DNA from: Terriglobia bacterium
Lineage (GTDB): Bacteria; Acidobacteriota; Terriglobia; JAJPHL01; JAPKYU01
Reading direction: 5' to 3'
Length of the DNA stretch: 64,000 nucleotides
NCBI GenBank assembly: GCA_965218055.1
Contig: CBDCKA010000001.1
Span: forward strand, 840,953-904,952
The notes below the pieces were generated by a model. The model worked only from the letters and a program-made list of their open reading frames with translations, had not been told where the DNA came from and searched no databases. Shown here piece by piece: positions 44,526-62,261 of the stretch. The position numbers were made by a program, and so were the translations under genes. Positions within the stretch are counted from its first letter, which is position 1. The number at the start of each line of letters is the position of its first letter.

Positions 44526-44536
44526 CATAGGTCGTG

Positions 44537-46529: not shown

Positions 46530-47474
46530 TTACTGGACGGCCATTTTCGCGGGATTGCTCGCTTGGCCGTCGGTTTGGATCACGACGCCGAGATCGCCCG
46601 AGGGTGCATCAAGCGGCACCACAAGGTTCACCTGGTAGAGCCCCACAAATCCGGGGGCCAAGCCGGAGAAGAGCACTTCGGCAACGATACCGCCCACCGT
46701 CACCACCGGCGGAATCGAGGTGAGAGAGAGCGGAGAAGCCGAGGCGGGCGCTCCCGTGAGCGGGGCGGGAGCGACCGGTCCCAGGCCCGTGGCGTAAACA
46801 ACCACCGGCTCACCCGGCGACGCCGGATTTTCGGGCGTGACAAGCTGGAAGGTCTCATTATGCAGAATGGCGCCTGCCGTGCCGTCGAGGGTAAGAATTC
46901 CCGGCTGGGCGAGCGAAATGTTGACCTCGACCGGATCGCTTAACACGCCGTTGTTGTTAACCACTACGGTCACAGTCGCCTGCCCGGTCAGCTCGTAGGG
47001 AACCTGCAGGTTGATCTGCTCCTGGCCATCCACGGTGGCGACGGTAAACAGCGGCACGGCAATGCCACTCAGCGTCACTGAAGTTCCCTGCAACTCGGTG
47101 GGCAGCGGAAGCTGCTCGGCCAGCACGACGCCGCTCACGTCTGTGGTAATCCCCGTCCCGAAGATGGTGACGATGGCCCCCGGCGTCACACCAGGCACAA
47201 AGCTTGCACCGTTCGCATCAGAAAACGCCGCCTCCTGCACGCTGTGGCAGTGAGAGGACATGGGGAACGCCTCGGTCACCGACACCGCGAAGGGTACATG
47301 TGGTTTCCGGGTGACTCGTGGTGGGTCGAAGAACCAAAACCCGCCGTGCTCTGGCGGGTGAACGGAAGGACCACCGGGACTGCCCATGTCAGTCCCAATC
47401 TGATGCCGATCTACCGCAAGCCGGATGCTGAGCACCTGGACCTGGTGCACCTCCGGGCCGGTGTAGACTCTCAA
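46530..47474 (-). CDS. 'Solibacter-type' C-terminal-domain protein lacking a signal peptide (probable gene fragment)
   Basis: 314 aa. From about residue 80, the pattern VQEAAFSDANGASFVPGVTPGAIVTIFGTGI...LSGIAVPLFTVATVDGQEQINLQVP...APGFVGLYQVNLVVP matches the C-terminal domains of 33883..35853. The N-terminal 80 aa have no signal or TM. Confidence 0.55.
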   Translation of the reverse strand: MRVYTGPEVHQVQVLSIRLAVDRHQIGTDMGSPGGPSVHPPEHGGFWFFDPPRVTRKPHVPFAVSVTEAFPMSSHCHSVQEAAFSDANGASFVPGVTPGAIVTIFGTGITTDVSGVVLAEQLPLPTELQGTSVTLSGIAVPLFTVATVDGQEQINLQVPYELTGQATVTVVVNNNGVLSDPVEVNISLAQPGILTLDGTAGAILHNETFQLVTPENPASPGEPVVVYATGLGPVAPAPLTGAPASASPLSLTSIPPVVTVGGIVAEVLFSGLAPGFVGLYQVNLVVPLDAPSGDLGVVIQTDGQASNPAKMAVQ

Positions 47475-47538: not shown

Positions 47539-47590
47539 CAAAAGAAAAGGGGAGCCCGATTCGGATCGGACTCCCCTTTCGGTTTCTAGT
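47539..47590. terminator. bidirectional intrinsic terminator downstream of 47649..48755
   Basis: caaaagaaaa-GGGGAGCCCGATtcggATCGGaCTCCCC-TTTCGGTTTCT. GC stem flanked by an A-run and a T-run. Confidence 0.6.
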
Positions 47591-47648
47591 CTCGTGCGTA
47601 AGGCTCTTTCCTCACAAGAGGAGCCGCTGCACGATGGCCCTTCTTAAC

Positions 47649-48755
47649 TTACTCCGTCCGCACCGCGAGATAGCCCTGCGCCAGGGTGTTGTCTCCGTCA
47701 GTGATGAAGGCAAAGCCGTGCGCATTCCGAAATTCACAGGTTGCAGTGATATAGCCCTGGAATTCGGCGGCAATATTTGACAGAAGATCGACCCACTGTG
47801 CCCCACCCGCGACAGGCTCGGGCGTCATCAAATCATCAGGAGCATCGGGACCGCTGTACTCGATGGTGCAGGAGCCAGATCCCTCCGAGGCATTCGTGAT
47901 GACCAGTCCGGTATTGAAGCCGAGCTGGTTGGTCACGAACGGGAACAGCAGCGTCGTGGTGCAATCGTTGATCTCGATCACATCGTTGGTGGGGCCGCTG
48001 GCATAACGCGGGCTCTTTGCAGCGTCATCGGTCACGGGATGATAGCTGACGGTCACGGAACCGGTATTAAGCGTCGGCTCTCCCGCCTCCCACGTGAACG
48101 TTATCGTCAACTCATTCCATTCCATTGCTTTCTCGGCGTCCGTCCCCTCGCGCACGTCGTCAGTAGTATCGAGCTCATCGTCGAAGTTGTATACGATCTG
48201 ACCCGCACGTGCTACTGACAGAGCGACGTTTCCGTCCTCATCAAGGCCGCTCATCTCCCCCTCGGTCATCAACGTGAGTGGGGCTAAATCGCCCGATATA
48301 ACTTGTGGGGAAGCGGTGAGATCTGTCATCTCGAGTGCCATTCTCGTTCCCATCATGCTCGGCGTCACGGTCACACCCTCAGGAATGTCGCGGAAAGCCA
48401 CCACGAGCTGATTTTCATCGTTGAGCGCGCTCGCAAAACCTTCCACGAACTTGATGGTGGCTACGTTCATGTTGTCCGATGGGGCCTCACACTGCAGACC
48501 CGTAGCCGAGGTTACCGTAATGTCGAGTCCGGCTGTCACGTCGGCGAGTTTAATCGGACTGTGTTTAATCATCACACCGTTGACACGAACTTCCGCGGTG
48601 ACATCATTACCATCTCCCACCATGGAGGCGTTGGCCATGATCCCGCCGATAGTTACCGTGCTACCCGTCGCAGTGTTAGGGAAATTTATACCAGTGTTGT
48701 CGGTGGCGATAGTCCAAAACGCTTCGCCAGATCGTTTGTAACTAGCTAATACCAA
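47649..48755 (-). CDS. acidic Thr/Asp-rich protein, shorter paralogue of 49640..51094 (TTG start, no signal peptide)
   Basis: 368 aa. Aligns with the C-terminal two-thirds of the 49640 protein (ASMVGDGNDVTAEVRVN ~ ANAYMVGDDGEISAQLTVN). Shares the C-terminal 4-Cys module FPFVTNQLGFNTGLVITNAS...CTIEY...CEFRNAHGFAFI...AQGYLAV. Confidence 0.65.
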   Translation of the reverse strand: MVLASYKRSGEAFWTIATDNTGINFPNTATGSTVTIGGIMANASMVGDGNDVTAEVRVNGVMIKHSPIKLADVTAGLDITVTSATGLQCEAPSDNMNVATIKFVEGFASALNDENQLVVAFRDIPEGVTVTPSMMGTRMALEMTDLTASPQVISGDLAPLTLMTEGEMSGLDEDGNVALSVARAGQIVYNFDDELDTTDDVREGTDAEKAMEWNELTITFTWEAGEPTLNTGSVTVSYHPVTDDAAKSPRYASGPTNDVIEINDCTTTLLFPFVTNQLGFNTGLVITNASEGSGSCTIEYSGPDAPDDLMTPEPVAGGAQWVDLLSNIAAEFQGYITATCEFRNAHGFAFITDGDNTLAQGYLAVRTE

Positions 48756-48766
48756 TAGATGTACTG

Positions 48767-49057
48767 TTAATCAACGCCCATCAATCCCCTTATTGAATCC
48801 CTCTTTGTAAACGGGAACCCATTGGCCCATTCTGGACTTTTGTAGACCGGTTTGCGAGCAATCCACCCTGAGTCCGGGAATCCGAGGCGGTTGAGTAGGG
48901 TGGCAATCTGCGTGTGCTGCGAATCGGAGATTCGCTGGCTGTGCCGCTGTGCTTCAGCGGCCCGATAGTCGGCCGCGTGCGAACCATCACGACGAGCCTT
49001 CACGACCTGTGTGGAATGGGTGCTCGCGGACCGCAGTGTTTTCAGCTCTTTTGTCAT
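48767..49057 (-). CDS. small hypothetical protein between the two paralogues
   Basis: Within ORF 48767..49072. ATG at 49057 preceded by GGGG. MTKELKTLRSASTHSTQVVKARRDGSHAADYRAAEAQRHSQR... No family recognised. Confidence 0.4.
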   Translation of the reverse strand: MTKELKTLRSASTHSTQVVKARRDGSHAADYRAAEAQRHSQRISDSQHTQIATLLNRLGFPDSGWIARKPVYKSPEWANGFPFTKRDSIRGLMGVD

Positions 49058-49317
49058 CGCGTGACCCCGCAAGTCTAGCTAGATGGAAGTGGCTGCCTAT
49101 CATATCAAGCCAAAGTTGCACATTCAAAGCTATTCAGCCGAATCGCAGCGGCTTGGACAGGCTACTGCGGTCATTGCAAGTCGCCCTCGGCACCCTGCGG
49201 GTGTGCCTCATCGAGTTCCGGATCGCCCTCACCTCTGCGGACCGAGCGCTCGACGAGATCGACCCGCCGCCTCAGATCGGCCAGCCCGGCGGTTCGGGCG
49301 GCGCCGCCTACCCTTAG

Positions 49318-49640
49318 CGTACAAGCCTACCAGACTGTACGCTCTACAAGACAGGCAGGAAAAATGAGCACAGGCTTACCAGCCTATGCTCTCCAGGGGG
49401 CAGGCAGGAATGCCTACCCTACCTTTTGAAAAGGAAAAAAAGGGAGCCTCATCTGGATGAGGCTCCCCTGTAGTTTCCGGCTTGGCGTTCAGGCGCACAC
49501 ACGCCGTCAGGCAGGAAGCGAGTACAGGCCTTGCGGCCTGTACTCTACGCCTAAGCGCAATCGAAGGAGATGGAAACTGAGCACAGGCCTTAGCGGCCTG
49601 TGCTCTCTACAACCCAGGCAGGAATGCCTGCCGCTATGCT
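49318..49640. repeat. cluster of REP-like palindromic repeat units (hairpin + CAGGCAGGAATGCC box)
   Basis: Hairpins: cgtacaAGCCTACCAGACtgtacg (49318-41), gagcacaggcTTACCAgcctatgctc (49366-91), gagtacaggccTTGCggcctgtactc (49520-45), gagcacaggccTTAGCggcctgtgctc (49579-605). Each is followed by ctctacaa(g/c)NcaggcaggaA(atgcct...). Confidence 0.6.
49425..49470 (-). terminator. intrinsic terminator of the 49640..51094 transcript
   Basis: In transcript orientation: GGGGAGCCTCATCcagATGAGGCTCCC followed by TTTTTTTCCTTTT. A 12-bp GC-rich stem plus U-run. Confidence 0.7.
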
Positions 49641-51094
49641 TAGTCCTCCAAGTCGATGGCCAGGTAGCCCTGCGCCGCCGTGGGGCCGCTCATCGTACCG
49701 AAGCCGTTGGAGATGAAGGCGAAGCCGTGGCCGTTTTCAAAGTCACAGTCCACGTCGAGAAAACCCTGGAAGCCCATAGCGATCCCCGACAACACGTAAG
49801 TCTCGCTGCCCCAGGACGGGACCTCCTTCGTCTCCATATCGGCGGGATTGGCCTCCGCACCATAGAACTTGATCGTGCAAGTTCCGCCATAGTTGGAAGC
49901 GTTCGTGAAGGCGATCCCGGTGTCAAAGCCTCCCGCGTTGGTCACGAACGGAAAGCGCATGCTCGTCTCACAGGGATCGAATCCGATGACCCGCACGGCA
50001 GCGGCATCAGCGAACTGCGGATTACCCTCGCTAGCACTGACGAAGCCCACGCTCACCATGCCGTCGGCGATCACGGTGTCTTCCTCCCACGTGAAGCTCA
50101 CCATCAACGTATTGCTCTGCGTCATATCTCCGGCGTCAGAGACATTGTAAGTGACCGAGCCGTCGCCGTCGTCGTCCAGGGTAACTGGAATCATACCATT
50201 GGCCGCTGTCGCGGTTGATGTAGTGGTCAGCGTGACTTTCATGGGATCGGTAGTGCTATCGGTAACCGACACATCGTTGTTGGCTATGTTTGTGATCATC
50301 ACGGTCACGCCGTCCGGGATGCCGGCGAATTTCACCCTTACTACGCCATAGTCAGCACTGTCAGATTGGTCGGTGAGCGCCGTAGCAAAGCCTTCCGTGA
50401 TCGTTATGGTAGCCATTCCCATTTCCATGGTTTCGCACTGCAGGACGTTGGCATCGTCCACCTTGACGGCCAGTCCGGTTTTGACCTTCGAGACATCGAA
50501 CGCCCCCGGCGACACGGACTGCGTGTTCACAGTGAGTTGGGCGGATATCTCTCCGTCGTCTCCCACCATGTAGGCGTTGGCTCGGATGCCGGCGATGATC
50601 ACATTGAAACCGTTGTCGCCAACTCCCAAGCCGAGACTTGCGCCGCTGAGTTTCTCCCACACGACCGTGTTCGGGTCCTCATCGGCATCAATCATCGGAC
50701 CTGCATCACCGGCGGCAGGGTCAAACACGGTTTCGCTTATAGCAGTGCCGCCCGTAGTCCCATCACTGTTCAACTCAGCAGCGTCATAGCTCAGGTCAGC
50801 CAGGCTGGTGATTGGAGTGTTCAGCGTAATGCTTAATGTGAAATCGGTTATTGCAAACAGCGAGCCGGTGTCCTCTGAAGGCACGCACCGCAACTCGATG
50901 CCGCCGATCTGTTCGGTCATGCCCTCGGCCCGCACCGTGGCCACTGCATCGTCGCCCGTAGCAGCCCGCGCCTCGCACCGTTGCGCCTGGGCCACGCTGC
51001 TGCTCAGCACGATGGCCGCCAGCAGGGACAGCATGACGATGCTGTTTCTCAAGATCGCCTTTTGAACCCTCTTCATCGTTCTTCCTTTTTCCAT
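49640..51094 (-). CDS. secreted acidic Thr/Asp/Gly-rich protein of unrecognised family (candidate major surface / secreted protein)
   Basis: Within ORF 49640..51163. Start MEKGRTMKRVQKAILRNSIVMLSLLAAIVLSSSVAQA (signal peptide), GAGG 5 nt upstream. C-terminal 4-Cys module FDPCETSMRFPFVTNAGGFDTGIAFTNAS...CTIKFYG...CDFENGHGFAFI...AQGYLAI. Noticeably lower GC than the flanks. Confidence 0.8.
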   Translation of the reverse strand: MEKGRTMKRVQKAILRNSIVMLSLLAAIVLSSSVAQAQRCEARAATGDDAVATVRAEGMTEQIGGIELRCVPSEDTGSLFAITDFTLSITLNTPITSLADLSYDAAELNSDGTTGGTAISETVFDPAAGDAGPMIDADEDPNTVVWEKLSGASLGLGVGDNGFNVIIAGIRANAYMVGDDGEISAQLTVNTQSVSPGAFDVSKVKTGLAVKVDDANVLQCETMEMGMATITITEGFATALTDQSDSADYGVVRVKFAGIPDGVTVMITNIANNDVSVTDSTTDPMKVTLTTTSTATAANGMIPVTLDDDGDGSVTYNVSDAGDMTQSNTLMVSFTWEEDTVIADGMVSVGFVSASEGNPQFADAAAVRVIGFDPCETSMRFPFVTNAGGFDTGIAFTNASNYGGTCTIKFYGAEANPADMETKEVPSWGSETYVLSGIAMGFQGFLDVDCDFENGHGFAFISNGFGTMSGPTAAQGYLAIDLED

Positions 51095-51574
51095 CTCGCC
51101 TCTTCTCCTTCTTGATTTCAGAGTCAGAATTTTTGATTCCTGGATGACGTTATACCTCAACATGCTCCCCCGTCACGAGAGCTACTGAACAACACGCTCA
51201 CCACAACTTCGCCGCTCCGGGCGGCAAGCTCTGGCAAACCGTACACTCTCGCCGGAGATTGAAAGCCTCACACAGTTCACCTTGGACCCACCCGGGGTGA
51301 TGACGCATTTTTTGTATCAACTCCAGCTGTGCCGCGTCAACTGTTTTTTTACTTTCCTGTTTACTACCCCAAACGGCCAGAGGCGGGATGGCGCGCTCTC
51401 GCCCCGATCATCACTGCCAGTCCAAGCCGGTCCAAACGTTCCCTGCCGCCTTACATACAAAGCGGCCATCGTGAAATTAACAACTGGCAGGGGGTATGTC
51501 AAGATTTTTTTTCGAAATGTGCCAGGAAAAAACAGGCCACTAGGGGGGGCAAGGGGGCGGTAGGCAGTAGGCGG

Positions 51575-51904
51575 CTATCCGGGGAGAAATTTTTGCGGAT
51601 CGGCCATCATACGACCCAACATTCTGCCTAACTGTTCATACCCGGTGACGATGCGCCTATGCAGATCCTGCGATAAGTAGCCGCAATCACGGGCGAAGTC
51701 GAGCCACACTTGCGTTTCGGTTGCCTCCGCGTCGGCGTCAGCAAGCTTACTCACAAACATACTCGGATATTGCCGCTTTCTGAAGCCTTCGGCGAGGTTC
51801 GCGGCAACGCTGCGTGAGGAGCGGCGTATTTGATCGGTCAAGGAGAAACGCTCATCCCTGGGGAATACCTTAGCCGGAATTTCCATTTTGAGCTTCCCCT
51901 TCAC
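51575..51904 (-). CDS. four-helix-bundle protein (23S rRNA intervening-sequence protein / Avd family), possibly N-terminally truncated
   Basis: 109 aa. ...FPRDERFSLTDQIRRSSRSVAANLAEGFRKRQ...WLDFARDCGYL matches the PF05635 core. The usual N-terminal helix (about 30 aa) is absent; an in-frame stop lies immediately upstream. Confidence 0.75.
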   Translation of the reverse strand: MKGKLKMEIPAKVFPRDERFSLTDQIRRSSRSVAANLAEGFRKRQYPSMFVSKLADADAEATETQVWLDFARDCGYLSQDLHRRIVTGYEQLGRMLGRMMADPQKFLPG

Positions 51905-52049
51905 CCGAAAACCTATGCCTCGTACCCTGTCGTGTCAATCGCAAATCGCCCGGGCCTCTTTGAGGTGGTAGTGCGGCACATTTTGGCTGTTCTTCGGAGT
52001 CGCTGTGCGGGTTTCGCCTGCCCAGCCTGCCTCGCCGCTGACACTTGTC

Positions 52050-53600
52050 CGGCCCGACCACTTCTGAGCACCTAAAATTACCCTCTCTCCTGGGTCGCTA
52101 GCCGTCTGGCAGCGGCAGTGCCGAGATCGTTCGCAGCATGCTGCTGAACAGCCTCCGGCTCAAGTGCCCTTCGGCCAGCAAAAGCCAGTAATATCGTGCA
52201 TGTTTCACCAGCCGTCCGCCCGTTTTCACCAGCCGCTGCTGCAAACTCGTCAGCGACCAGTTGTTGATCCTCTTCGGTAGCACCAGCCGCCGCCACAGGT
52301 TTCCCAAGTTGTAGGCGATCAGGCTCAGCCATAGGCGCACCTCGTTCGACCGAAACCGATGGCAACTCAGCCGGGTCATCTTTACCGCCTGCTTGCCTTC
52401 CTTGATCCATTGCTCTGCGGTGCCCCGCTTGTTGTAGAACCGGACCACCGCCCGGCTGTCGGTCTCCAGATTGGTGACGATGAACCCCACGCGAGGGAAC
52501 AGTTCGCCAAAGTGGAACTCCACCTTCGCCACCACCCGCCGCGCCTTTTTCCAACTGGCTGCCTGGTAGAGAAAGCTCTTGTACCAGACCACCGGCTTGT
52601 GGCTCGGTCGCCCCACTGACCGCGTCAACAACTCCGCGATGTCCCTCTCCAGACTGTCGTTGGCCGGGATGCGAATCGCATACTTCACGTCCCGCTCCTC
52701 CAGTGCGTCGTAGATCTCCGGCTTGGCGAAGGCGGCGTCGGCGCGAAACACCGCTTCCTTGCCCAGCTTCTGCTGCCGTTCGATCTCTGGCAGGAGAAGT
52801 TCTTCCCAATCCTCGGCGCTGTGCACGTTGCCGGGTCGCAGCTTGGCCGCCAGACAGTCACCCTCGCGACTGAACAGCAACAACGGGTGATAGCAACTCG
52901 ACTCGAAATGCCCGTTGTAGGCGCTCTGTTCCTGCTCCCCGTAGACCGGGATCTCGGTGCTGTCCATGTCCAGCACCACCCGGCGCGGCGCATCCATAGC
53001 TTCCGCCCTGGCGATCAAATCCCGGTTGATCGCTGCCAAACCAGCAAGGTTCTCGTCTTGCGTCAGCAGTTCTGTCTCGAACGACTGTAACCGGGAAGTC
53101 AGGGCTGCGCCACGTTCCCAGATCTTCTCCGAACCGATCAGCCGGAACGTCGGATCTTGGGAAAGCCGCTCGGCGTCGTTGACGTCTTCGTATCCTGCCA
53201 AGCGGCTGTAGATGGACTGCCGCAGCAAGTCAGCGAGGGGCAACCGGGTGTTCTTCCCCCGAGAGTCGATCAAGTGCTGTTCGATAAGTTCGCCGAACCC
53301 CAAACGTTCGTCCAACTCGCGCACCAGAATCAGACCGCCGTCGGAAGTGATTCGCGATCCCTGAAATGTGACCCGCAGAAACCGGTTGAATGACAGTTGA
53401 AACGCCTGTTTTTGGCTCTCACCCATTCGGTGTACACCTCCGGAAGGCAATGTTGATGCTGGAACCCGCATCAATACTGACGTTGGAGTCATTCAGAAGG
53501 TTGCCGCCGATAGTTCATAAAGGAAATCCGGGCTTAGAATGCTGGAAGACCTCCATCGCTAGCTTGTACGCCAGTTGATAAGCTTTCAGATCCCGATGTC
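52050..53600 (-). mobile_element. IS1380-family insertion sequence (ends approximate)
   Basis: Single DDE transposase ORF with about 100-170 bp of flanking non-coding sequence. It sits between the Avd-like gene and the gspD 3' end. The terminal inverted repeats could not be defined confidently by eye. Confidence 0.55.
52098..53426 (-). CDS. IS1380-family DDE transposase
   Basis: Within ORF 52098..53492. Start MGESQKQAFQLSFNRFLRVTFQGSRITSDGGLILVRELDERLGF is the characteristic IS1380 transposase N-terminus. DDE region ...VVLDMDSTEIPVYGEQE... Confidence 0.85.
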   Translation of the reverse strand: MGESQKQAFQLSFNRFLRVTFQGSRITSDGGLILVRELDERLGFGELIEQHLIDSRGKNTRLPLADLLRQSIYSRLAGYEDVNDAERLSQDPTFRLIGSEKIWERGAALTSRLQSFETELLTQDENLAGLAAINRDLIARAEAMDAPRRVVLDMDSTEIPVYGEQEQSAYNGHFESSCYHPLLLFSREGDCLAAKLRPGNVHSAEDWEELLLPEIERQQKLGKEAVFRADAAFAKPEIYDALEERDVKYAIRIPANDSLERDIAELLTRSVGRPSHKPVVWYKSFLYQAASWKKARRVVAKVEFHFGELFPRVGFIVTNLETDSRAVVRFYNKRGTAEQWIKEGKQAVKMTRLSCHRFRSNEVRLWLSLIAYNLGNLWRRLVLPKRINNWSLTSLQQRLVKTGGRLVKHARYYWLLLAEGHLSRRLFSSMLRTISALPLPDG

Positions 53601-53664: not shown

Positions 53665-55941
53665 TTACTCGCTCTCCTGCCTGAGCGCCTTGCGCAATTC
53701 CTTCAATTTGTCGTGGAACTCCTTGGTGGCCATCTTGGCCTCGCCCATGTCCTTGATCACCCTGGGCGTGAGCAGGATGATCAGCTCGTTGCGGCTGGTG
53801 GAATCGCGGGTGGTGCCGAACAATAGCCCCAAGCCGGGAATGCGCCCTAACAGCGGCACTCGATTGGTGGAGACGATCCGGGTTTCCGAGATGATGCCGC
53901 CCAGGGCAATGGTCTCCCCGTCCTGCACCGTCACCTGAGTGGACACGGAACGCTTCTGGATCGAAGTCAGAGTGCCGCTGCTGGTCGGCAAGCTGACTTC
54001 CTGGTCGATACGCAACGTCACCAGCCCGCTGGGATTGATGCGCGGTGTCACCGACAGGATCACGCCGGTATCCCGCCGCTGGTAGGAACTGACAGGTGAG
54101 ATGGTCCCGAAGGCTACACCCTGCTGAGTCTGGATGGGAATCTCCTGTCCTACCTGGATGCGCGCCTCGGTGTTATTGCTGGCCAAAAGCGTGGGCGCGG
54201 AAAGCACCCGTGTGCGTCCCCGGTTCTCCTGGGCATTCAGGAACAGGAACAACTCGCGGCTGCGGCCTATCAAGGTGCCCACCGAAGCGCTCAGGCCGGC
54301 GTTAGGAAACGTCTCCGTCCCGAAAGCGCTGAATTGCCCAACGGGATTCCGGGAGGCGCTGCTGCGCCGCTGGAGGAACGCTTCGACCCCGAAGGACAGC
54401 GCCCCCGATAAGGTGACCTCGTACACCTTGGCTTCAATGAGCACCTGCCGGGGCGCCACGTCCAGCTCCTTCAGGGTCTCAAGGATGACTTCGTAGTCCT
54501 GCGGGGTAGCCTGGACGACCAGGGTATTGTTGATGGGGTCCGGAACAATGCGCGCCGGACTCTGCAACATTCCACCCGGCACAGCAGCTATGAAGATTTG
54601 CCTGGAACCCCGGTACATAGAACCCCGCGATGTTTGGCCCACCCCGCCGACAGGAAACGACACACCTCCGGGCGTCATTCCTCCACCAGCCGATCCCATC
54701 CCGCCGGGCGGTATCATCCCCGGCGCCGCCATCCCTGGCGCTGTCATCCCGGGCGCCGACGCTCCTGTTGCCTCCGCACCCATCATCGGCCGAGCTGCTC
54801 CGTAAAGGCCCGCCAATACGAAAGCCAACTCCCCCGCCGCCCTGTTTTCCACCTTGTAGGCAAAGTTCTGCAGTCCCCCACGGCGCACGGGCTTGTCCAG
54901 CTTCTCAATCCACTGCTGCACTTCCGAGTACACCTCGGAATTCGGAGTCGCCACCAGGATGGAGTTGATTCGCTCCAGTGCAATAAACCGCACCGCCGAG
55001 CCTTCCTTCGAGAGGGCATACGCCTTGAAGATTTCCTCCAGGTCCTTGACCAGGCTGCTGGCCTGGCTGTTCTCGATGGCAAACAACCGGACCCGCTGCT
55101 GCTCCAGCGCCGAGGTGTCAAACAGGTTCACCATCTCCATTAGCCGCTTCAGGCTGCGGCTGGTGTCGGTGATGAGCAGGATGTTGCCCGGCTCGTGGGT
55201 CACGATGTGGCCCGCTTCCGACAGGTAGCTGCTCAGGATTTTCGACATATCCGCGGCGGTGACGAAGCTGAGGGCGACCACGTTCATCACCATGCGGTCA
55301 TCAGGCGGCAGGCTGGCTCCAGTGGGATCCTGGGTGAGCGGTAGCGGAACACGCGGCGCTCCCTTCAGGGGCACGATCCGCCAGAAGCTGCCGCTCTGGA
55401 CGGCCGAGGCCCCGTTGGCCCGCAGGATGGCCTGCAGCAGGGGCAGCAGGTCCTCATGACTCAGGTTGCCCAGGGTGTTGATGTTCACCACACCCTTCAC
55501 CCCAGGGTCCACGACATAGTTCATCTTGAGTTCGGCGGCAATGATCCCAATCACCTGAAGCAGGTTGGCATTCTCCAGGTGGAGGCTGATGCGCGCCCCA
55601 GCTCGCGTCTTCTCCGTTGCCGGTGCCGCTTCCGCCTCCTGCGCGGGAGGCTCTGCCGATGGCTGGTCTTGAGGCTGGGCAGTCGGTTGTTGCGGTTCCT
55701 GAGCCTGAGGCTCTGTCGGTTCCCCCTGCGCTGGCGGCTGGACCGATTGCTCGGTTTGAGACTGCGCAGGTGGTTGCGCGGGTTCCTGGACCGGCGCGGC
55801 CTTCCTCGGAGTGCTGCCTGCGGCGACCGTCGACATCAGCCCCCAAGCTGCTAAAACTAGGACGGCGCTACCCAGTTGGCCTCTCAGTACACCGGATGTG
55901 AAATTCTGCATCCTCTTCATGGTTCGTTTTATTCGGCTCAT
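53665..55941 (-). CDS. gspD: type II secretion system secretin GspD
   Basis: Within ORF 53665..56007. Start MSRIKRTMKRMQNF. Signal peptide, Pro/Gln-rich linker, N0-N3 domains, and secretin domain ...GETIALGGIISETRIVSTNRVPLLGRIPGLGLLFGTTRDSTSRNELIILLTPRVI. Confidence 0.9.
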   Translation of the reverse strand: MSRIKRTMKRMQNFTSGVLRGQLGSAVLVLAAWGLMSTVAAGSTPRKAAPVQEPAQPPAQSQTEQSVQPPAQGEPTEPQAQEPQQPTAQPQDQPSAEPPAQEAEAAPATEKTRAGARISLHLENANLLQVIGIIAAELKMNYVVDPGVKGVVNINTLGNLSHEDLLPLLQAILRANGASAVQSGSFWRIVPLKGAPRVPLPLTQDPTGASLPPDDRMVMNVVALSFVTAADMSKILSSYLSEAGHIVTHEPGNILLITDTSRSLKRLMEMVNLFDTSALEQQRVRLFAIENSQASSLVKDLEEIFKAYALSKEGSAVRFIALERINSILVATPNSEVYSEVQQWIEKLDKPVRRGGLQNFAYKVENRAAGELAFVLAGLYGAARPMMGAEATGASAPGMTAPGMAAPGMIPPGGMGSAGGGMTPGGVSFPVGGVGQTSRGSMYRGSRQIFIAAVPGGMLQSPARIVPDPINNTLVVQATPQDYEVILETLKELDVAPRQVLIEAKVYEVTLSGALSFGVEAFLQRRSSASRNPVGQFSAFGTETFPNAGLSASVGTLIGRSRELFLFLNAQENRGRTRVLSAPTLLASNNTEARIQVGQEIPIQTQQGVAFGTISPVSSYQRRDTGVILSVTPRINPSGLVTLRIDQEVSLPTSSGTLTSIQKRSVSTQVTVQDGETIALGGIISETRIVSTNRVPLLGRIPGLGLLFGTTRDSTSRNELIILLTPRVIKDMGEAKMATKEFHDKLKELRKALRQESE

Positions 55942-55954
55942 CTCAGATTCTGCC

Positions 55955-56752
55955 TCATTGGGTTTTCTGCGCCGCCGGGAGATCCTCATACCAGGTCTGT
56001 ACGCCAAATGGCGTTACCCGGTCGTATCTCTTCCGGTTACCTTCGACGGTGACGGTTAAATAGCGATCCCCGGTGGGGGAGCCGGTCGCTGGGGCGACAG
56101 CGGGAGCGGTGGCGGCTCCTGGGGTGGGTGTAGACGCCGGCCCTGCAGAAGAAGCTGAAGGGGCAGCCGGAACAGCGGTCAACACCTGGTCGGCCGCGGT
56201 GCCGGCCGGGCGGGCGGGCCGGACTGCGGCCCGCCCGGCGGCCTGGCGCACGTTTTCGGCTGATTCGTAGACATCAATGGTGGTCTTCTGGCCCTCGAAT
56301 TCGATAATCACCTGGTGCTCGGCGATTTCCGCCACGCGATAGCCACCGATTTCATCGCCCACCTTGAGCCGGCGGAATGTGGCCTGCCTGGCCTGTTGCG
56401 GCTCGGCCATCAGGGCCACCGGACCGCTGCCGAGGTTCACGGTTCCAATCACCAAGGGGACCGGCGGCCGGACCTTGGATACGCTTGCCAACGCCTGGTC
56501 GTTGTTGCGGTCGGGGCTGAACAGGTTGCGGGTAAGCAGCACGGAGTGGCTGTCCGGGACAGCCGCCAGTCCAGCTTCAGGCATGCCTGCTTTGGACACA
56601 CCTGCCCAGGGGGTGGCTGCTGAGGTCACAAACTGCTTGTAGCGGGCATGATTGCTCTGCCAGGTATCGTGGATGGCGGCAGCAACCCACACCGCCAGCG
56701 TCAAGAGGGCCAGGTTAAGATAGGTTATCGGTTTGCGCATGCTTTCTCTCAC
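55955..56752 (-). CDS. T2SS accessory protein (GspC/GspN/PilP-like), single N-terminal TM
   Basis: 265 aa. TM helix ITYLNLALLTLAVWVAAAI, then a periplasmic domain and an Ala/Pro-rich tail. Located between the gspM-like gene and gspD. Confidence 0.5.
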   Translation of the reverse strand: MRESMRKPITYLNLALLTLAVWVAAAIHDTWQSNHARYKQFVTSAATPWAGVSKAGMPEAGLAAVPDSHSVLLTRNLFSPDRNNDQALASVSKVRPPVPLVIGTVNLGSGPVALMAEPQQARQATFRRLKVGDEIGGYRVAEIAEHQVIIEFEGQKTTIDVYESAENVRQAAGRAAVRPARPAGTAADQVLTAVPAAPSASSAGPASTPTPGAATAPAVAPATGSPTGDRYLTVTVEGNRKRYDRVTPFGVQTWYEDLPAAQKTQ

Positions 56753-57411
56753 GATTTGGGAGTTGGCGCGGGCTCGGCGAACATCAGCCCACGAATCACC
56801 ATTCGCACCGTCACCATCTTTTGTGGCTTTTGTGGTTTTTGTGTCCGACCGGGACGCGAGGGCAACGCCCTAATGGAGAGCTGATCCAGCGCCAGTACCT
56901 TGCGACTGGCGTGGGCAGCCAGCAGAAAACTCGTGAGCTGGTCCAGCCTGCATTGGAACGACAACGACAAGGGCACGACGTTATAGCTCGCCCCGGCGAC
57001 CTTGAGAACCCGCACCGGCCGGAAGGCGGCGTTGCGCATTTCCATGCCCTGCTTCGCCATCAGTTGCTTGATCACTTCCTGCAACTCGGCCGCAGCCAGG
57101 GCCGACGTGCTGCTGCTCAGCAGGCCTTTCTCGGCTTCAGCCAGACGAGCCTGCATTTCCTGAAACTCCTTTTTCTGATCTGCGGCCAGGGCTACAAGTC
57201 GCCGGTATTTGCGCAGGGTCTTCTCCTTCAGTGGCAGCGAGGCACGGAGCTTCTCGGCGGGGTCCATGACGGGCAAGACAAGCAAATCCAGCAGCAGGAA
57301 CAGAGCAGTGGCAGCTGCCAGCAAGAGCAGAGCCCGCTGGTCTCGAGCGCTCAAAGAACGCAAGAAAGACGCAGCTGTCGCTGGCTCCCTCTTCCTGCCT
57401 CCGTTAGTCAT
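56749..57411 (-). CDS. gspM: T2SS protein GspM-like
   Basis: 220 aa. One TM helix (ALLLLAAATALFLLLDLLVL) plus a coiled coil. Overlaps the gspL stop. Confidence 0.6.
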   Translation of the reverse strand: MTNGGRKREPATAASFLRSLSARDQRALLLLAAATALFLLLDLLVLPVMDPAEKLRASLPLKEKTLRKYRRLVALAADQKKEFQEMQARLAEAEKGLLSSSTSALAAAELQEVIKQLMAKQGMEMRNAAFRPVRVLKVAGASYNVVPLSLSFQCRLDQLTSFLLAAHASRKVLALDQLSIRALPSRPGRTQKPQKPQKMVTVRMVIRGLMFAEPAPTPKS

Positions 57412-58939
57412 GACTGGCCACCTCCTCCGCTCGTGCCTGCGTCTCCCGCAACCGCATCCGGATCTGGAAGGCCTCCCGCCCTTGTTTGTTCTTGGTGATC
57501 GCGGTGATGAATTCCGGCTGTTGGAAATGCGGCGACTGATTGATGGCCTGTAGAATGCCGGAAGCGGATTGGGCTTGCCCGGAGGCCGTCACCTGGTTAT
57601 CCTTAAAATGGAGTGTTTGCAACCAGGCCGTATCGGGAACCAGGCGAGTTAGTTCCTTCCACGCCTCGAGCCTGAGCGCGATATCCTGCCGCTGGCCCTG
57701 TAGCAGATCCCATTTCAACAACAGCGCCTGGTGGCGGGAATTCAGCTGTTCCACATGCTCCACATGGGGCTGCAACTTGCTGATCTCCGAGTTCAACCAG
57801 GAGGAATAGAAGCGGTCCTGCACCCATGTGGTTGCGAGCCAGGCAGCGCCGAGCAACAGCACAAGTACCACCAACGCATAGGCCGACGCATGTGCCCAAT
57901 GGGAGCGCCAGTGAGATCGCCAGTGAGAGCGGTAGCGCTTCTCCGCCGGCAGCAGATTCCAGCGCAGGCCGGGGGGGGAGGCCAACCCCGGCAGGCGGAG
58001 TTCGAGCTCTGGCAGGGCCGCCGCGTAGGCCACAAGATGCTTTCGGAGGTGGAACTCCGCTGGCCCCGCCTCGGGAATGACCACCGGAATATCCTCTGCC
58101 GAGGACCGGTTCGCTGGTGCAGAGTCTTCTGCTGCCGGTTGTTCTCTGACTTCCGATTTTTGCGCGATGACTTCGCCAGTTTCTAGCAGCGGCGGACTAT
58201 CCTGGGGATCGAGTCGCAACTCGGCCACGCAAAACTCCACTTCGCGCTCGAACGAGGTCGTAGCCGCAACTTCTTTAGAGTAGAACGAGCCATCGGGTGC
58301 GACTCCCAGCAGTTCCAGAACTTGCCCGCAGTGATCCATCAACAACAGCGGGCGAGGCAGTCCTGGCTTGTTCCGGCCCCGATGGAAGGAAGCCCCGCGC
58401 AGCGCCTGGTACAGCACGGCTGTAGAAAGGGTGAAGCCGGCCACGTCCACGCCCGCCTGGCAGAACCACTGGTAGAGCTGATCGAGCGCACTCTTCTCCA
58501 CAAGCGCTACAGCCACCCGCAGCCGCCTTCCGAGGCCCTCCTCCGAGGCGCCGGTCCCATTGCCCGCGCCGCGCGCAGGCGATTCGGGCAGCAGCGCGTA
58601 GTCGAAATAGACGCTGCCTTCCTCGAAGGGGTGGAGCTGATCTACCTGGTAGGCCACCGTCTGCCTCAGTTCTCGCCCAACTTCGGGGGGCAATTCCAGC
58701 GTTCGCACCAGGCCGGCTCCGCGCGGGAGCGCCACCAGCGCGCTGGTCGTCAACGCATGATTCTCTTCGCGGAAGCGCCGGTACTGCTGGGCCACCTCGG
58801 CCACCGGCCGGGTGCGGAAATCCTCAATCCGGAGGAATCCGCTGACCCGCAGGCGACGCCCGCGGCCGCGCAGGGAGACGGCTTCCAGGTGACTCCCCCG
58901 AATTGCAATGCCGATGCTGGTCCCCAGGTGGACGGTCAT
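57404..58939 (-). CDS. gspL: T2SS protein GspL-like (actin-like cytoplasmic domain + TM + periplasmic domain)
   Basis: 511 aa. Position and architecture fit GspL. Contains an RSHWRSHWRSHW tandem repeat before the TM helix. Confidence 0.65.
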   Translation of the reverse strand: MTVHLGTSIGIAIRGSHLEAVSLRGRGRRLRVSGFLRIEDFRTRPVAEVAQQYRRFREENHALTTSALVALPRGAGLVRTLELPPEVGRELRQTVAYQVDQLHPFEEGSVYFDYALLPESPARGAGNGTGASEEGLGRRLRVAVALVEKSALDQLYQWFCQAGVDVAGFTLSTAVLYQALRGASFHRGRNKPGLPRPLLLMDHCGQVLELLGVAPDGSFYSKEVAATTSFEREVEFCVAELRLDPQDSPPLLETGEVIAQKSEVREQPAAEDSAPANRSSAEDIPVVIPEAGPAEFHLRKHLVAYAAALPELELRLPGLASPPGLRWNLLPAEKRYRSHWRSHWRSHWAHASAYALVVLVLLLGAAWLATTWVQDRFYSSWLNSEISKLQPHVEHVEQLNSRHQALLLKWDLLQGQRQDIALRLEAWKELTRLVPDTAWLQTLHFKDNQVTASGQAQSASGILQAINQSPHFQQPEFITAITKNKQGREAFQIRMRLRETQARAEEVASHD

Positions 58940-58982
58940 TTCCGATACGCTCGCTTCTTCAAGTCCTCGTTCATAGCCCAGT

Positions 58983-60029
58983 TCACAAAATGACCCGCTG
59001 CTCTTCTACTGCCTGTTCATCCCAGGCCACTAGCTCGGTCCGGCCGCTGGCTTCCCGGCGGAAGATGGCGCGCACCGACGCTCGCGTGGCTGAGCCGCGG
59101 AGCCGGCCCGTGGCAGTCAGGGTGAACAGGTCCGAGATTCGATAGATTCCAAGGTGGGGCAAAGCCTCTGCGGGAATCGAAATTGGCAACTCGGTCAGGC
59201 TTTGGTAGAGCTTTTCCCGGCGTCCGGCGACGACTGCACGTACCCGCTCCTGGTCCATGCCCGGCACGCTCAGCAACGCCTCGTAGGGAGCGTAGTTCAC
59301 ATCCAGCCTTGTGAAGTTCCCATACACCGTCAGCAGGCGGTTGAACCCGCCCCGCCGAACCAGACGGTCATCCGCGTCGCGCTCCATCCAGCCGTAGAAC
59401 AACTCTGGCGTGACCCCCTTGACCAACAGCAGTTCTTCGACCCGCTGGAAGGGCTGGTGCGCTGCCTGGTAGGGCTGCGCCAGACCGGCGTAAAACTGGT
59501 CAAAGACGCTCCCGGCGCTCGAGGTGGCCGGCGCACGCCAATCGGCAATGGCCCGAGTGATCTCCCGGACGTCCATGTTCCCCACCCCGGCGGCTTGAAA
59601 CAGCGTTTGCAGCCGCTCCACCGGGGCGGTGTTGACGTTTAGCTTGCCCGCTTCGGAGGCCACCCGGACACGCGCCGTCCCGGTAGCGTAGGAAAACTCC
59701 AGATAGGGCCGGCTTGGTTCGTAAAGCAATTTCTGTTCCGCGTCCCGCAAGCCGGGGGTTTGTACCAAGTAGAGCGCCTGTTCCAGAGCCCCGCGCGCCA
59801 GGAAGCGGCCTTGCTCAGCTTCCAGGCGGTAGCGGGTGGCGGCCAGCTCGGTGCGCACCGAAAGAGCCAGCGCCAGTGCTACCAAAGACAGCGCAGCCGT
59901 CAGCCACATGACGAGCAACAAGACGGCGCCTCTGTGGGAATTCGAACTGGTCTGGGAATTCGAGCCCCCATGGGAATTCGAGATGGTCGGGGAATTCGAG
60001 CTCGGACTCCGGCCCACCGACTTTGGCAT
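58983..60029 (-). CDS. gspK: T2SS minor pseudopilin GspK
   Basis: Within ORF 58983..60236. Start MPKSVGRSPSSNSPTISN (ATG at 60029, 2 nt after the gspJ stop). GspK motif GKLNVNTAP. The N-terminal region carries an 18-bp x4 tandem repeat. Confidence 0.75.
   Translation of the reverse strand: MPKSVGRSPSSNSPTISNSHGGSNSQTSSNSHRGAVLLLVMWLTAALSLVALALALSVRTELAATRYRLEAEQGRFLARGALEQALYLVQTPGLRDAEQKLLYEPSRPYLEFSYATGTARVRVASEAGKLNVNTAPVERLQTLFQAAGVGNMDVREITRAIADWRAPATSSAGSVFDQFYAGLAQPYQAAHQPFQRVEELLLVKGVTPELFYGWMERDADDRLVRRGGFNRLLTVYGNFTRLDVNYAPYEALLSVPGMDQERVRAVVAGRREKLYQSLTELPISIPAEALPHLGIYRISDLFTLTATGRLRGSATRASVRAIFRREASGRTELVAWDEQAVEEQRVIL
59936..60007. repeat. 4 tandem copies of an 18-bp unit GGGAATTCGAnnnnnnnn (each with an EcoRI site) inside gspK
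   Basis: gggaattcgaactggtct / gggaattcgagcccccat / gggaattcgagatggtcg / gggaattcgagctcggac. In-frame; encodes a Ser/Asn-rich repeat. Confidence 0.8.
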
Positions 60030-60031
60030 TT

Positions 60032-60754
60032 TCACCGGCTCGCTCCGGCGATGCTCAAGCGCGCGTAGAGAGGCACCGGCTCCAGGCCCCTCCACGTGGC
60101 TTCTTCCGCGCCCACCTGTAGGGCGACTGCCGCGGGCATCTCCCTGCGCTCCAATAACGACCAGGAAGATACCCACCGTGCCAGATCGGGCCGTTCGTGC
60201 CGGTACTGGAACCGGCACTCGCGGAGTCCTTCCCACAGCAGCAGGGCCCGCTCTGTGTCAAAGGGACGCAGCTGCGGTTGGTCCCCTTCCGGAGTGCGCA
60301 GCAGGTCCACCACCACGCCAGCCAGCTGCTCGCTGTCGAGCGCCTGCCGCTCTTCGAGCCACAGCTTCCAGGTCCGGTCACGTTGCCGCTGGGCGAAGTA
60401 GTCGGCCACCACGATGCCTCCCCGTCCGCGCTCCAGCGCCGAATACGAGGTCAGAAAGACCAGGCGGCGCTCCTCGGCAAAGAAGAACGGCATCTGCTGG
60501 CGCCGGTTGGGTGACTCCACCACGATGTTCCGCAGCAGGTGGTTGGAAAGCTGGAAATGCAGGATGTCCTCCACCTGGGTCACCCGGCGCAACTGCAGAA
60601 CCGCCTGCTGCCCCTTCTCCCAGGCCCGCAGGCCTATCCGCAGCGAGGTGAGAGCCGCGACAGCTACCAGGCCGGCGATGGTGGTGGCGGCCATCAACTC
60701 CAGCAGCGTCAGTCCCGCGCTGCGTTGCTTACTGCGCTGGCAGTAGTGGTTCAT
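60032..60754 (-). CDS. gspJ: T2SS minor pseudopilin GspJ
   Basis: 240 aa. Prepilin-type N-terminus MNHYCQRSKQRSAG|LTLLELMAATTIAGL. Confidence 0.75.
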   Translation of the reverse strand: MNHYCQRSKQRSAGLTLLELMAATTIAGLVAVAALTSLRIGLRAWEKGQQAVLQLRRVTQVEDILHFQLSNHLLRNIVVESPNRRQQMPFFFAEERRLVFLTSYSALERGRGGIVVADYFAQRQRDRTWKLWLEERQALDSEQLAGVVVDLLRTPEGDQPQLRPFDTERALLLWEGLRECRFQYRHERPDLARWVSSWSLLERREMPAAVALQVGAEEATWRGLEPVPLYARLSIAGASR

Positions 60755-61202
60755 ATTTACAGGTCTCGAACGTGGCGCGTTGCTCTCCGCTGGCGCCTTT
60801 CCAGAACACCGTCAGGGTCACCAGCACCAGGGGCGTCAGCGCCGCTTGTCGTTCGCCGGCGGCTGCACCGGCAGGATTCCAGCGCCGAATTTCCGCCTCC
60901 CAGCGAAACGTTTCATCCCACCGGCCAGCAACCCGGCCGGGCACTAGCGTCTGCTCTATGAGCAAACGGTTCAATTGCGAGCGACCCACCAGTGTCGCTT
61001 TCTCGTAAGTTTCCGTGCGCGCCAGGTTGCGCAGCGAGCCGGAAAGCCCGCTCATCAACGCAGCCACAGCAATGCCCAACAGCGCCATGGCCACCAACAC
61101 TTCCAGCAGCGTGAACCCATGGGTTGCAGGTTGCCGGAGTTGGAAGGAGGCTCTTCCCCCGCCGCTGCTTCCAACATCCCGAATCGCAAGTCCAACACCC
61201 AT
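60729..61202 (-). CDS. gspI: T2SS minor pseudopilin GspI
   Basis: Within ORF 60729..61214. Start at the second Met (TGATG overlap with the gspH stop). Prepilin motif ...THG|FTLLEVLVAMALLGIA, with an unusually long leader (about 29 aa). Confidence 0.65.
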   Translation of the reverse strand: MGVGLAIRDVGSSGGGRASFQLRQPATHGFTLLEVLVAMALLGIAVAALMSGLSGSLRNLARTETYEKATLVGRSQLNRLLIEQTLVPGRVAGRWDETFRWEAEIRRWNPAGAAAGERQAALTPLVLVTLTVFWKGASGEQRATFETCKYEPLLPAQ

Positions 61203-61681
61203 CAGCGCTCCCACTCCACGCGGGGCAGCGCCGTCAGCACATCGAACTTCACCGTGACGGCACGGCCGCGGGCATTGATCAGCCGCAGTCCCACTCGGGG
61301 CATCCCCCCGTTTGGCGGGAAGATAAAGGTGCGCATACGGCTTGGCTCGACCACGATTTCTGGAGGCAACTGCCAGCTCCGACGGTAGGACGGCTCCCCG
61401 CTGGCTGTGGCCCCTTCCAGGTCCTCCAGCTCGACCCGGCGCCGTTCCGAATCCACCGTCACCTGGCAGACGGTCTGCTGACGCAAGGCCCGCACGCGGG
61501 CGTAGCGGAAGGTGTTCGCCAGCCGGTCGGCGGCCGACTTCAGCCGCAACGTATCCAGACCGGCGGTCATGCTCGGGAACACGATGGCTCCCAGCACGCC
61601 GACGATCGTCAGCACGACCACCATCTCCAGCAGCGTGATGCCGCGACAGCGCCCCCGGCGAAACTGTTGACCGCTGCTCAC
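61202..61681 (-). CDS. gspH: T2SS pseudopilin GspH
   Basis: Within ORF 61202..61831. No in-frame ATG exists before the prepilin motif, so the likely start is GTG at 61681: VSSGQQFRRGRCRG|ITLLEMVVVLTIVGVLGAIVFP. Confidence 0.65.
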   Translation of the reverse strand: MSSGQQFRRGRCRGITLLEMVVVLTIVGVLGAIVFPSMTAGLDTLRLKSAADRLANTFRYARVRALRQQTVCQVTVDSERRRVELEDLEGATASGEPSYRRSWQLPPEIVVEPSRMRTFIFPPNGGMPRVGLRLINARGRAVTVKFDVLTALPRVEWER

Positions 61682-61715
61682 AATCGTCAATGATTCAATC
61701 CTCAATTCCCCACTC

Positions 61716-62213
61716 CTAGTGTTTCCAGCTCGCCACATCGCTGTCTTCGCCCTCTCCGCCTTCTCTCCCGTCAGCACCGTGGGAAAGGATGTCGGGTTCT
61801 TCGCCGTGCTCGCCCGGGTACCGGTAGACATAGGGCTGCCCCCAGGGATCGTCCGGGATATCCTGGGGCAGGTAAGGACCGTCCCAGCGCTCCACTTCCG
61901 CGGGTTTGACCCGGAGAGCTTCGAGTCCCTGCTCGGTGGTGGGAAACCTCCCAGTGTCCAGCTTGTAAATGCCCAGGGCGGTCATGAAGCCGTTCATTTG
62001 TTCCCGAGTTGCGGTCTGCTTGGCAGCGCTGACTTTCTTCCACATGCGCGGCAGCACCAGCGCGCTGAACAGGGCGATGATGGTCACCACCACCAGCAGT
62101 TCAATCAGCGTGACGCCGCGCTCACCGGCCTGGCCGCCGAGGCGCGGAGGCACCTTGGAAAGGTTTCTTGCCGGTACGGTCGCGACTTCACCCTCAGATT
62201 GGTTTTTCTTCAT
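61716..62213 (-). CDS. gspG: T2SS major pseudopilin GspG
   Basis: 165 aa. ...ERG|VTLIELLVVVTIIALFSALVLP prepilin motif and GspG signature DPWGQPYVY. The leader is long (about 32 aa). Confidence 0.85.
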   Translation of the reverse strand: MKKNQSEGEVATVPARNLSKVPPRLGGQAGERGVTLIELLVVVTIIALFSALVLPRMWKKVSAAKQTATREQMNGFMTALGIYKLDTGRFPTTEQGLEALRVKPAEVERWDGPYLPQDIPDDPWGQPYVYRYPGEHGEEPDILSHGADGREGGEGEDSDVASWKH

Positions 62214-62261
62214 GCAATTGCTCCTCTGCGCCTCTGTGTGTCTAGTGTCCCTGTGGCTCTC

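Follow-up and report, generated by a model that had tools for sequence, protein, structure and literature searches.

A hypervariable gene slot behind the type II secretion secretin of Acidobacteria encodes a candidate surface or secreted protein of a new beta-sandwich family

What is encoded directly behind the secretin gene of an acidobacterial type II secretion system (T2SS)? Why does it differ so strongly between genomes that are otherwise nearly identical? The question arises from a 64,000-nucleotide stretch of DNA, here called the window, from a Terriglobia bacterium (assembly GCA_965218055.1, contig CBDCKA010000001.1, positions 840,953 to 904,952). Its T2SS operon lies on the minus strand (53665..63479) and comprises gspF, G, H, further pseudopilins, K, an L-like gene, M, a 265-aa open reading frame (ORF) and, last, gspD (53665-56007). 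Beyond an insertion sequence (IS) and a four-helix-bundle gene follow two ORFs of the same strand, at 49640..51094 and 47649..48755. An initial reading made from the sequence alone, hereafter the sequence-only reading, took them for two paralogous, acidic, Thr/Asp-rich secreted proteins of unrecognised family. Both ORFs are indeed found at these coordinates, the larger encoding 484 aa, and their distance from gspD across the IS and the four-helix-bundle gene is as it had been described. The smaller ORF, of 368 aa, proved to be something else: the 5'-truncated remnant of an allele that the larger gene displaced.

The linkage to the secretion system extends well beyond the window. In at least 15 loci a gene of this family lies on the same strand directly downstream of the gspD of a complete T2SS. 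Among them are close relatives whose secretins are 97-99% identical (L001, L002, L006 and L014) as well as distant members that share just 25-30% identity with the query (L007/L008/L009, encoding protein P0105, L020, L025, L035 and L037, and further L040, L047, L049, L062, L067 and L072). From the gspD stop it is 300-540 nt to the family gene among the distant loci, as against 750-930 nt for the clade of the window; at L017 and L064 a gap of 3-5 kb separates the two genes. Because the adjacency to gspD persists even at 25-30% identity, a T2SS substrate or surface component, which the sequence-only reading had offered as a candidate, is the leading reading. Each lineage carries one T2SS-linked copy; the remaining copies are located away from the T2SS, where they often form tandem pairs or neighbour integrases, IS elements or toxin-antitoxin genes. 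At the paralogue of L003/L004, a phage-type integrase and toxin-antitoxin modules (ParE, HigB, Gp49/HTH) lie upstream of P0049, and some family copies may therefore be mobile, travelling on integrative elements.

The slot behind gspD does not have constant contents. In five genomes with secretins at least 97% identical it holds three allele types that share at most 41% amino acid identity, here termed type A (the window and L002), type B (L014 and L001) and type C (L006). Divergence is confined to the gene also within type A: between the window and L002 the flanks, the leader, the 3' flank and a 544-bp piece described below are 97-100% identical, and the gene itself falls to 56-68% nucleotide identity, with indels, in its hypervariable centre (50156..50455, minus strand, approximately aa 213-313) and to 78-90% in a second dip at 50656-50849. 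By Nei-Gojobori estimates of synonymous (dS) and non-synonymous (dN) divergence, dS is 0.003-0.012 for the secretin, 0.18-0.26 for the type A genes and 0.74 for the gene centre. The ratio dN/dS is 0.6-0.9 overall for type A, with values above 1 in some segments, and reaches 1.15-2.1 in comparisons of type B, including the slot copies of L001 and L014, where few substitutions underlie the estimates. Within the central 300 nt the best match shifts from segment to segment, from L002/L010 to L011, L012, L015 and L017, indicating that the gene is a mosaic.

Alleles in the slot have been replaced with defined junctions, which are visible when the window is compared with L014. L014 represents a nearly identical genome, with a secretin region that is 99% identical to the window at the nucleotide level; it is free of the IS and has a single gene in the slot, and the C-terminal 355 residues of that gene's product are 92% identical to the 368-aa ORF. 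The two stretches align at 93% identity over window positions 51873-50982 (four-helix-bundle gene, leader and signal peptide) and at 98% over 48716-46000. Between these blocks, 2,265 bp of the window (50981-48717) stand where L014 has 345 bp coding for the N-terminal domain of the type B gene. The inserted 2,265 bp consist of the body of the 484-aa gene from codon 39 onwards, its terminator, the hairpin repeats and the 544-bp piece. On the left the junction falls at nucleotide 113 of the coding sequence, at the end of a conserved signal-peptide block (codons 1-38; 50981..51094, minus strand). The alignment thus identifies the 368-aa ORF (47649..48755, minus strand) as the 3' remnant of the former resident type B allele. 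Family homology begins at 48716, and codons 1-13 of the ORF (48755-48717, including its TTG start) are junction sequence, not family sequence.

The layout of a type A gene followed by a remnant recurs in L002 and L010, and L001 has type B at full length in its slot (protein P0041, 498 aa). In the full-length type B gene of L014 (L014:10001-11539) 1 nt is inserted within the signal-peptide region and stop codons lie in frame in the part for the N-terminal domain; an error of long-read assembly, genuine decay or slippage could account for this. L010 has two type A copies (L010:2332-4298 and L010:9761-11715) that are 93% identical over approximately 2 kb; the second is followed by a type B relic and has no T2SS within 10 kb upstream. 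This arrangement points to duplication or rearrangement of the whole cassette.

The 368-aa ORF might instead be a second paralogue with a function of its own, for instance as a form that is intracellular or secreted without a leader. It does align, as the sequence-only reading had held, with the C-terminal two-thirds of the 484-aa protein (36% identity over 355 aa, against residues 162-483; BLASTP, E 5e-53); it is intact both in the window and in L010, with 90% amino acid identity between the two, and it has a terminator of its own. However, it starts 13 codons upstream of the recombination junction, it comes without signal peptide, N-terminal domain, leader or promoter, and full-length counterparts exist in L001 and L014. 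The remnant in L002 has suffered a further 192-bp deletion and a frameshift, and dN/dS between remnants is 1.3, which fits an absence of constraint. We consider a second functional paralogue very unlikely.

The paralogues carried within single genomes have an architecture that resembles the left junction. In L011/L013 and in L012/L017, whose paralogous proteins are approximately 35% identical, the genes have a common 5' block of 279-315 bp at 90-92% identity, which spans approximately -200 to +110, and 3' blocks at 92-97% identity. Among paralogues otherwise 35-40% identical the signal-peptide block is the best conserved stretch of DNA, and conservation among family copies ends at the signal-peptidase site. 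Since the edge of conservation and the left junction in the window both fall at this site, the arrangement is the one expected if the signal-peptide block serves as a site of homologous crossover.

The product of the type A gene (49640..51094, minus strand) has the features of an exported protein. The ORF has alternative in-frame starts at ATG 51076, the start position of family members not linked to a T2SS, and at 51163. The N-terminus, MEKGRTMKRVQKAILRNSIVMLSLLAAIVLSSSVAQA followed by Q, reads as a classical Sec signal peptide, the clear signal peptide of the sequence-only reading, with probable A-x-A cleavage after A37. The mature product is approximately 46 kDa, has an isoelectric point of 4.05 and contains 11% Thr, 9% Asp and 3.6% Lys plus Arg, so that its description as acidic and Thr/Asp-rich was apt. 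GC content is lower than in the surroundings, as had been remarked, although the dip is only modest (0.583 for the 484-aa gene and 0.557 for the 368-aa ORF vs 0.62 for the window). The prerequisites of a T2SS substrate are present, namely the Sec-type signal read from the sequence, conserved cysteine pairs and, in the model, compact beta domains; neither a lipobox, nor a transmembrane segment, nor a C-terminal beta-barrel was found in the alignment and model of the family protein. The acidic, Sec-dependent, 40-200 kDa profile of surface-layer (S-layer) proteins in general is matched as well, together with a long leader and a terminator, and these traits are permissive of an S-layer protein rather than diagnostic.

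No known family could be attached to either protein, in agreement with the sequence-only reading. Pfam gave nothing above cut-off for the two window proteins (best match GP40, E 0.013) and nothing for any of 42 aligned family members; NCBIfam and PHROGs gave no match to the window proteins, and phmmer and profile searches of PDB sequences gave nothing better than E 0.14. A word-indexed search returned 534 homologues, all unnamed and mostly of 470-550 aa, and no named S-layer protein occurs among the 120 of these that were listed. No SLH or similar anchoring or lattice domain of Pfam was found in the family. With an exhaustive profile search, 4,002 representatives of clusters were retrieved at E<=1e-3, and 1,013 remained at E<=1e-30, so that the family amounts to approximately 4,000 clusters at 50% identity, and 231 stretches were confirmed in GTDB species genomes. 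The best 80 of these 231 all come from metagenome-assembled genomes (MAGs) and are labelled Terriglobia, Bryobacterales, Bryobacteraceae, Solibacteraceae or with broader acidobacterial names, with the exception of one 2.7-kb contig binned as Dehalococcoidia. No description of the family was found in the literature on it, on TIGR03437 or on S-layers of Acidobacteria. The family is large, unannotated and order-specific.

Conservation along the protein is concentrated at its ends. In the 42-sequence alignment C220, C375, C406 and C450 are invariant, which bears out the conserved cysteines picked out earlier, and C40 and C70 are nearly so; the predicted disulfides are C220-C375, C40-C70 and C406-C450. 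The conserved motifs are VRAEGxTE, GIRANA, LQC, EGF, FPFVTN..DTGIA.TN.S, FQG, GFAFI and AQGYLA. The top-conserved stretches of 20 residues are the signal peptide, the FPFVTN stretch and the final 40 residues preceding a variable C-terminal tail; residues 101-160 and 241-340 are the least conserved.

An AlphaFold2 model, which had been suggested as a check, was built on the 42-sequence alignment (mean predicted local distance difference test score, pLDDT, 78; predicted template-modelling score, pTM, 0.67). It is all-beta with approximately four sandwich domains, predicted at about aa 39-150, 160-270, 285-352 and 366-465, and like the sequence searches it brought out no well-characterised family. 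Foldseek against PDB returned only surface proteins with multiple immunoglobulin-like (Ig-like) domains, with template-modelling (TM) scores below 0.35; these were PrgB, the C-terminal regions of AgI/II, integrin legs, Gram-positive pilins and a Haloferax S-layer protein, and the best of the matches were to the Ig-like modules of cell-surface adhesins and pilins. A viral structure library gave generic matches only. Judged by the model, the fold would be that of an extracellular beta-sandwich chain, with no finer assignment.

The conserved C-terminal domain (approximately aa 366-484; 49640..49999, minus strand) contains the FPFVTN..DTGIA.TN.S motif, C406, FQG, C450, GFAFI and AQGYLA, and it is also found outside proteins of this size. 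It recurs four to six times in tandem in proteins of 600-2,900 aa, and in some of these giant tandem-repeat proteins it occurs together with He_PIG, PKD-like, DUF11, BACON and cohesin/dockerin domains, all of them extracellular modules. Proteins with tandem copies include P0147, P0165, P0176, P0149 and P0183. The domain is an autonomous, previously undescribed extracellular module.

The 484-aa gene has transcription signals of its own, and the long leader and strong terminator that had been taken as marks of high expression are both present. The leader (51095..51575, minus strand) runs for 481 nt from the stop of the upstream gene (51575) to ATG 51094, close to the approximately 480 bp first given, is 90-96% conserved in four related genomes and is kept only in T2SS-linked copies. 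Two promoter-like boxes, each preceded by an A-tract, were read by eye on the minus strand: TTGACA (51502-51497) and TAATTT (51479-51474) with a 17-nt spacer, and TTGACG (51340-51335) and ATACAA (51317-51312), again with 17 nt between them. Both are conserved in all five genomes of the leader alignment, and in L006 the second is duplicated as a 23-nt tandem repeat around L006 positions 9730-9780. A sigma-70 scan of the leader called no promoter, so that the boxes are candidate promoters only, and an Rfam scan of 47000-53800 found no RNA family in the leader. The gene ends in an intrinsic terminator with a 13-bp stem and a T run (49440..49469, minus strand). Behind the 368-aa remnant stands a second one, with a 16-bp stem and a T run (47545..47580, minus strand), which is the original terminator of the slot.

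Between the 484-aa gene and the remnant lie repeats and the 544-bp piece. The REP-like (repetitive extragenic palindrome) hairpins described downstream of the gene are present, in four copies of GYACAGGCC-loop-GGCCTGTRC preceded by GCAGGCATTCCTGCC (49319..49632, minus strand); three copies match the search pattern, against 0.12 expected by chance, and reading of the sequence added the fourth, whose loop has 5 nt. The repeat was found nowhere else in the window, which makes it a local feature of family 3' flanks and not a genome-wide REP. It also occurs 3' of family paralogues in L003, L004, L010, L011, L013, in several copies and in both orientations, and it could stabilise mRNA or act as a recombination substrate. 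The 544-bp piece (48756..49299, minus strand) was brought in by the type A cassette. L002 and L010 have it at 99% identity, a stretch downstream of the L003/L004 paralogue matches it at 88%, and its ORFs (48767-49072, minus strand; 48949-49317 and 49083-49367, plus strand) match no protein family.

On this evidence we favour, by a modest balance of probability, the view that the 484-aa protein is a dedicated, surface-exposed T2SS cargo, possibly an S-layer-like coat, that is diversified by cassette recombination; export through the T2SS, exposure at the surface and formation of a coat are what we infer from the features above. The protein would reach the periplasm via Sec, fold there with disulfide bonds and leave through GspD, and it would then be exposed on or around the cell, most likely as a non-covalently attached S-layer-like coat. 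The conserved N- and C-terminal domains may serve secretion, anchoring and assembly, with the variable central parts facing outward. The slot behind gspD, with its own long leader, would stay fixed and its contents would be swapped by homologous recombination, with the conserved block of approximately 280-315 bp (upstream DNA and signal peptide) and the 3' flanks bracketing very different gene bodies. In the window, a type A cassette would have entered via the signal-peptide block, and its other end would have joined illegitimately inside the resident type B gene. The 368-aa remnant left by that joining would be a non-expressed relic, at most a sequence reservoir. We infer phages, predators or grazers as the likely drivers of diversification. 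In its most specific form the proposal is more tentative: Bryobacterales may possess a coat made of a new protein family, exported by a dedicated T2SS and changed by cassette recombination, with crossover at the signal-peptide block and with paralogues and relics as the reservoir, in a form of antigenic-variation-like change outside any host that is presumably driven by phages or protist grazers.

The closest precedent for such an arrangement is found in Aeromonas hydrophila, whose S-layer cluster has the order spsE..M-orf2-spsD-vapA, with a VapA protein of 469 aa (PMC4413209). Both loci have a complete T2SS set that ends in the secretin and is followed by a gene for an acidic secreted protein of approximately 470-500 aa (PMC4413209), and the order M, small ORF, D, cargo is the same in the window. 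By analogy with VapA, and from the pattern of conserved ends and a variable middle, a coat would be the most likely form of the exposed protein. In Aeromonas the secretion system concerned is a second, dedicated one. The two systems differ in that no kinship with VapA/AhsA was detected among the 120 listed of 534 matches, in Pfam or in PDB, the VapA sequence itself not having been compared, and in that the family described here combines allele swapping in the slot with six conserved cysteines and with a set of several divergent paralogues in each genome.

Known variable surface families offer a second set of parallels. Two of their hallmarks are found here, with conserved 5' and 3' DNA blocks around divergent bodies and with different bodies occupying one site whose junction lies at the block. 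In Campylobacter fetus, the sapA/sapB paralogues have a conserved 5' segment and divergent bodies that are recombined behind one expression site; the promoter-bearing segment inverts, and secretion is of type I. The present family is alike in its several paralogues, its conserved 5' segment and the placing of different bodies in one expression site. It differs in that no invertible element was found at the slot of the window, in that the conserved block consists of upstream DNA and signal peptide only, and in that a truncated relic was left behind. The Vsp, Vlp and Vpma proteins of Mycoplasma and pilE/pilS of Neisseria belong to host-associated pathogens that face immune selection, and are either lipoproteins or type IV pilins. 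Among their paralogues, too, conservation is much stronger in the signal-peptide region than in the mature protein, and incomplete copies that lack a promoter are located close by, whereas the window family is of Sec/T2SS type and belongs to free-living soil Acidobacteria.

Several observations weigh against a surface coat that is varied by recombination. The homologues all come from MAGs or metagenomes and are unnamed, and the locus is known from sequence alone. Only approximately one in four to five family loci is linked to a T2SS. The promoter-like boxes were seen by eye and not picked up by the sigma-70 scan, and the dN/dS values above 1 are based on few substitutions. Since the slot in the window showed neither a recombinase nor an invertible element, exchange may be rare allelic replacement over evolutionary time and not a programmed switch. 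No kinship to known S-layer proteins was detected in sequence or fold, the structural matches being generic Ig-like sandwiches. Classical S-layer proteins usually have few or no cysteines, and this family has six that are conserved.

Some of these points lend themselves to another explanation, that the protein is secreted by the T2SS but acts in soluble or matrix form, as a biofilm-matrix scaffold, a polymer- or mineral-binding protein or a released adhesin, with no ordered coat. Its variability would then mirror diverse ligands or escape from consumers. Synteny and export features fit this equally well, the multi-Ig architecture is adhesin-like, the C-terminal domain is common to giant adhesin-like proteins, no anchor motif is present and the conserved cysteines are atypical of S-layers. 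The resemblance to multi-Ig adhesins and pilins (the C-terminal region of the AgI/II proteins SpaP and AspA, PrgB and RrgB) and to the TM1070/ASRT beta-sandwich is nevertheless generic: identity is 9-12%, global TM scores stay below 0.35, and the 484-aa protein has no LPXTG, isopeptide or other family signature. Moreover, conserved N- and C-terminal domains around a hypervariable centre are typical of surface proteins that self-assemble or are anchored, and less so of enzymes or of soluble binding proteins, Pfam detected no catalytic or known binding domain, and the gene order is that of the Aeromonas S-layer cluster. We rate a soluble or matrix protein as a lesser but serious possibility.

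The linkage could also be positional only, the protein being a periplasmic or outer-membrane-associated one, or an accessory of the machine, and not its cargo. Nothing in the sequence of a T2SS substrate marks it recognisably as such, so that sequence cannot reveal whether the protein is a cargo, and this leaves room for such a view. It is made unlikely by an adjacency that holds to 25-30% identity and always with an independent leader, by hypervariability and multiple divergent paralogues, which are unlike machine parts, and by a C-terminus that has no beta-barrel, lipobox or transmembrane segment. Quite unlikely, too, is a surface fibre or pilus-like subunit exported through the secretin, in which the tandem paralogue pairs would be major and minor subunits: the protein has neither a prepilin leader nor an N-methylation motif and bears no signature of the sortase, chaperone-usher or isopeptide kind, the sandwich is complete in each of the four modelled domains, and the matches to pilins reflect generic Ig-like similarity.

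The DNA between gspD and the family gene bears on a further idea about the source of variation. The IS (51874..53532, minus strand; 1,659 bp, DDE_Tnp_1_4 transposase) is flanked by a 5-bp target duplication, CTAAG, at 53537-53533 and 51873-51869, and it is specific to the window, being absent from the otherwise 99%-identical L002 and L014. It lies inside the four-helix-bundle gene, which encodes 123 aa when intact (L002), so that the ORF at 51575..51904 (minus strand) is a truncated fusion of the gene's 3' part to the end of the IS. The sequence-only reading had called this gene Avd-like, a label that would suggest a diversity-generating retroelement (DGR); it is instead of 23S-IVS type (TIGR02436, 84 bits), and the evidence supports no role for it. 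That a DGR makes the variability using this neighbour is close to negligible in probability and was rejected, for although the gene matches the DGR Avd model (E 1.5e-8) and bAvd weakly and adjoins a gene with a hypervariable region, the Avd score of 35 bits is far under the cut-off of 80, the gene is split by the IS in the window and in L001 and L006 the slot does not contain it, a template repeat matching the variable region was not found within the window, a Pfam scan of 20 large ORFs elsewhere in the window revealed no reverse transcriptase, and DGRs do not generate the indels and exchanges of whole alleles that are part of the variation. A phage or mobile-element protein was likewise rejected, there being no PHROGs match, a chromosomal window with housekeeping genes (the large ORFs checked elsewhere encode ProRS, PBP1, DnaB, alanine racemase, lysine biosynthesis and AmtB) and a conserved T2SS slot.

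On its other side the slot is followed by a remnant of a Soli_cterm (TIGR03437) gene (46530..47474, minus strand), the C-terminal part of a large protein with beta-propeller, Big_1 and Soli_cterm domains, and this neighbour is consistent with the acidobacterial taxonomy of the family. In the distant T2SS loci, a protein of approximately 1,160 aa with a YVTN beta-propeller, Big_1 domains and Soli_cterm (L007:13938-17441, L020:13843-17325, L047:12267-15782 and L062:11811-15566) comes after one or two family genes, and it may be a second cargo or a partner. Farther along, window positions 40912-45559 hold a second GspE/PilB-type ATPase (T2SSE and MshEN domains), after which come a double-zinc-ribbon protein and several ORFs for response regulators and histidine kinases; the kinases look fragmented, with HisKA/PAS and HATPase_c on separate ORFs.

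The locus would thus add a new family, in a phylum new to the kind, to the variable surface or secreted proteins that are linked to a T2SS, and its significance hinges on export and surface location. Acidobacteria are among the most abundant soil bacteria, and their cell surface and the exports of their secretion systems are barely known; the slot behind gspD provides a tangible candidate for what an entire order mainly exports through its T2SS. Its family of approximately 4,000 clusters has carried no annotation, and it would extend to free-living soil bacteria the kind of surface diversification seen in pathogens, with conserved ends, swapped middles and relic cassettes. The slot offers a locus for typing strains of Bryobacterales and a likely determinant of phage reception or defence, and the family brings with it a new beta-sandwich domain that also builds giant adhesin-like proteins.

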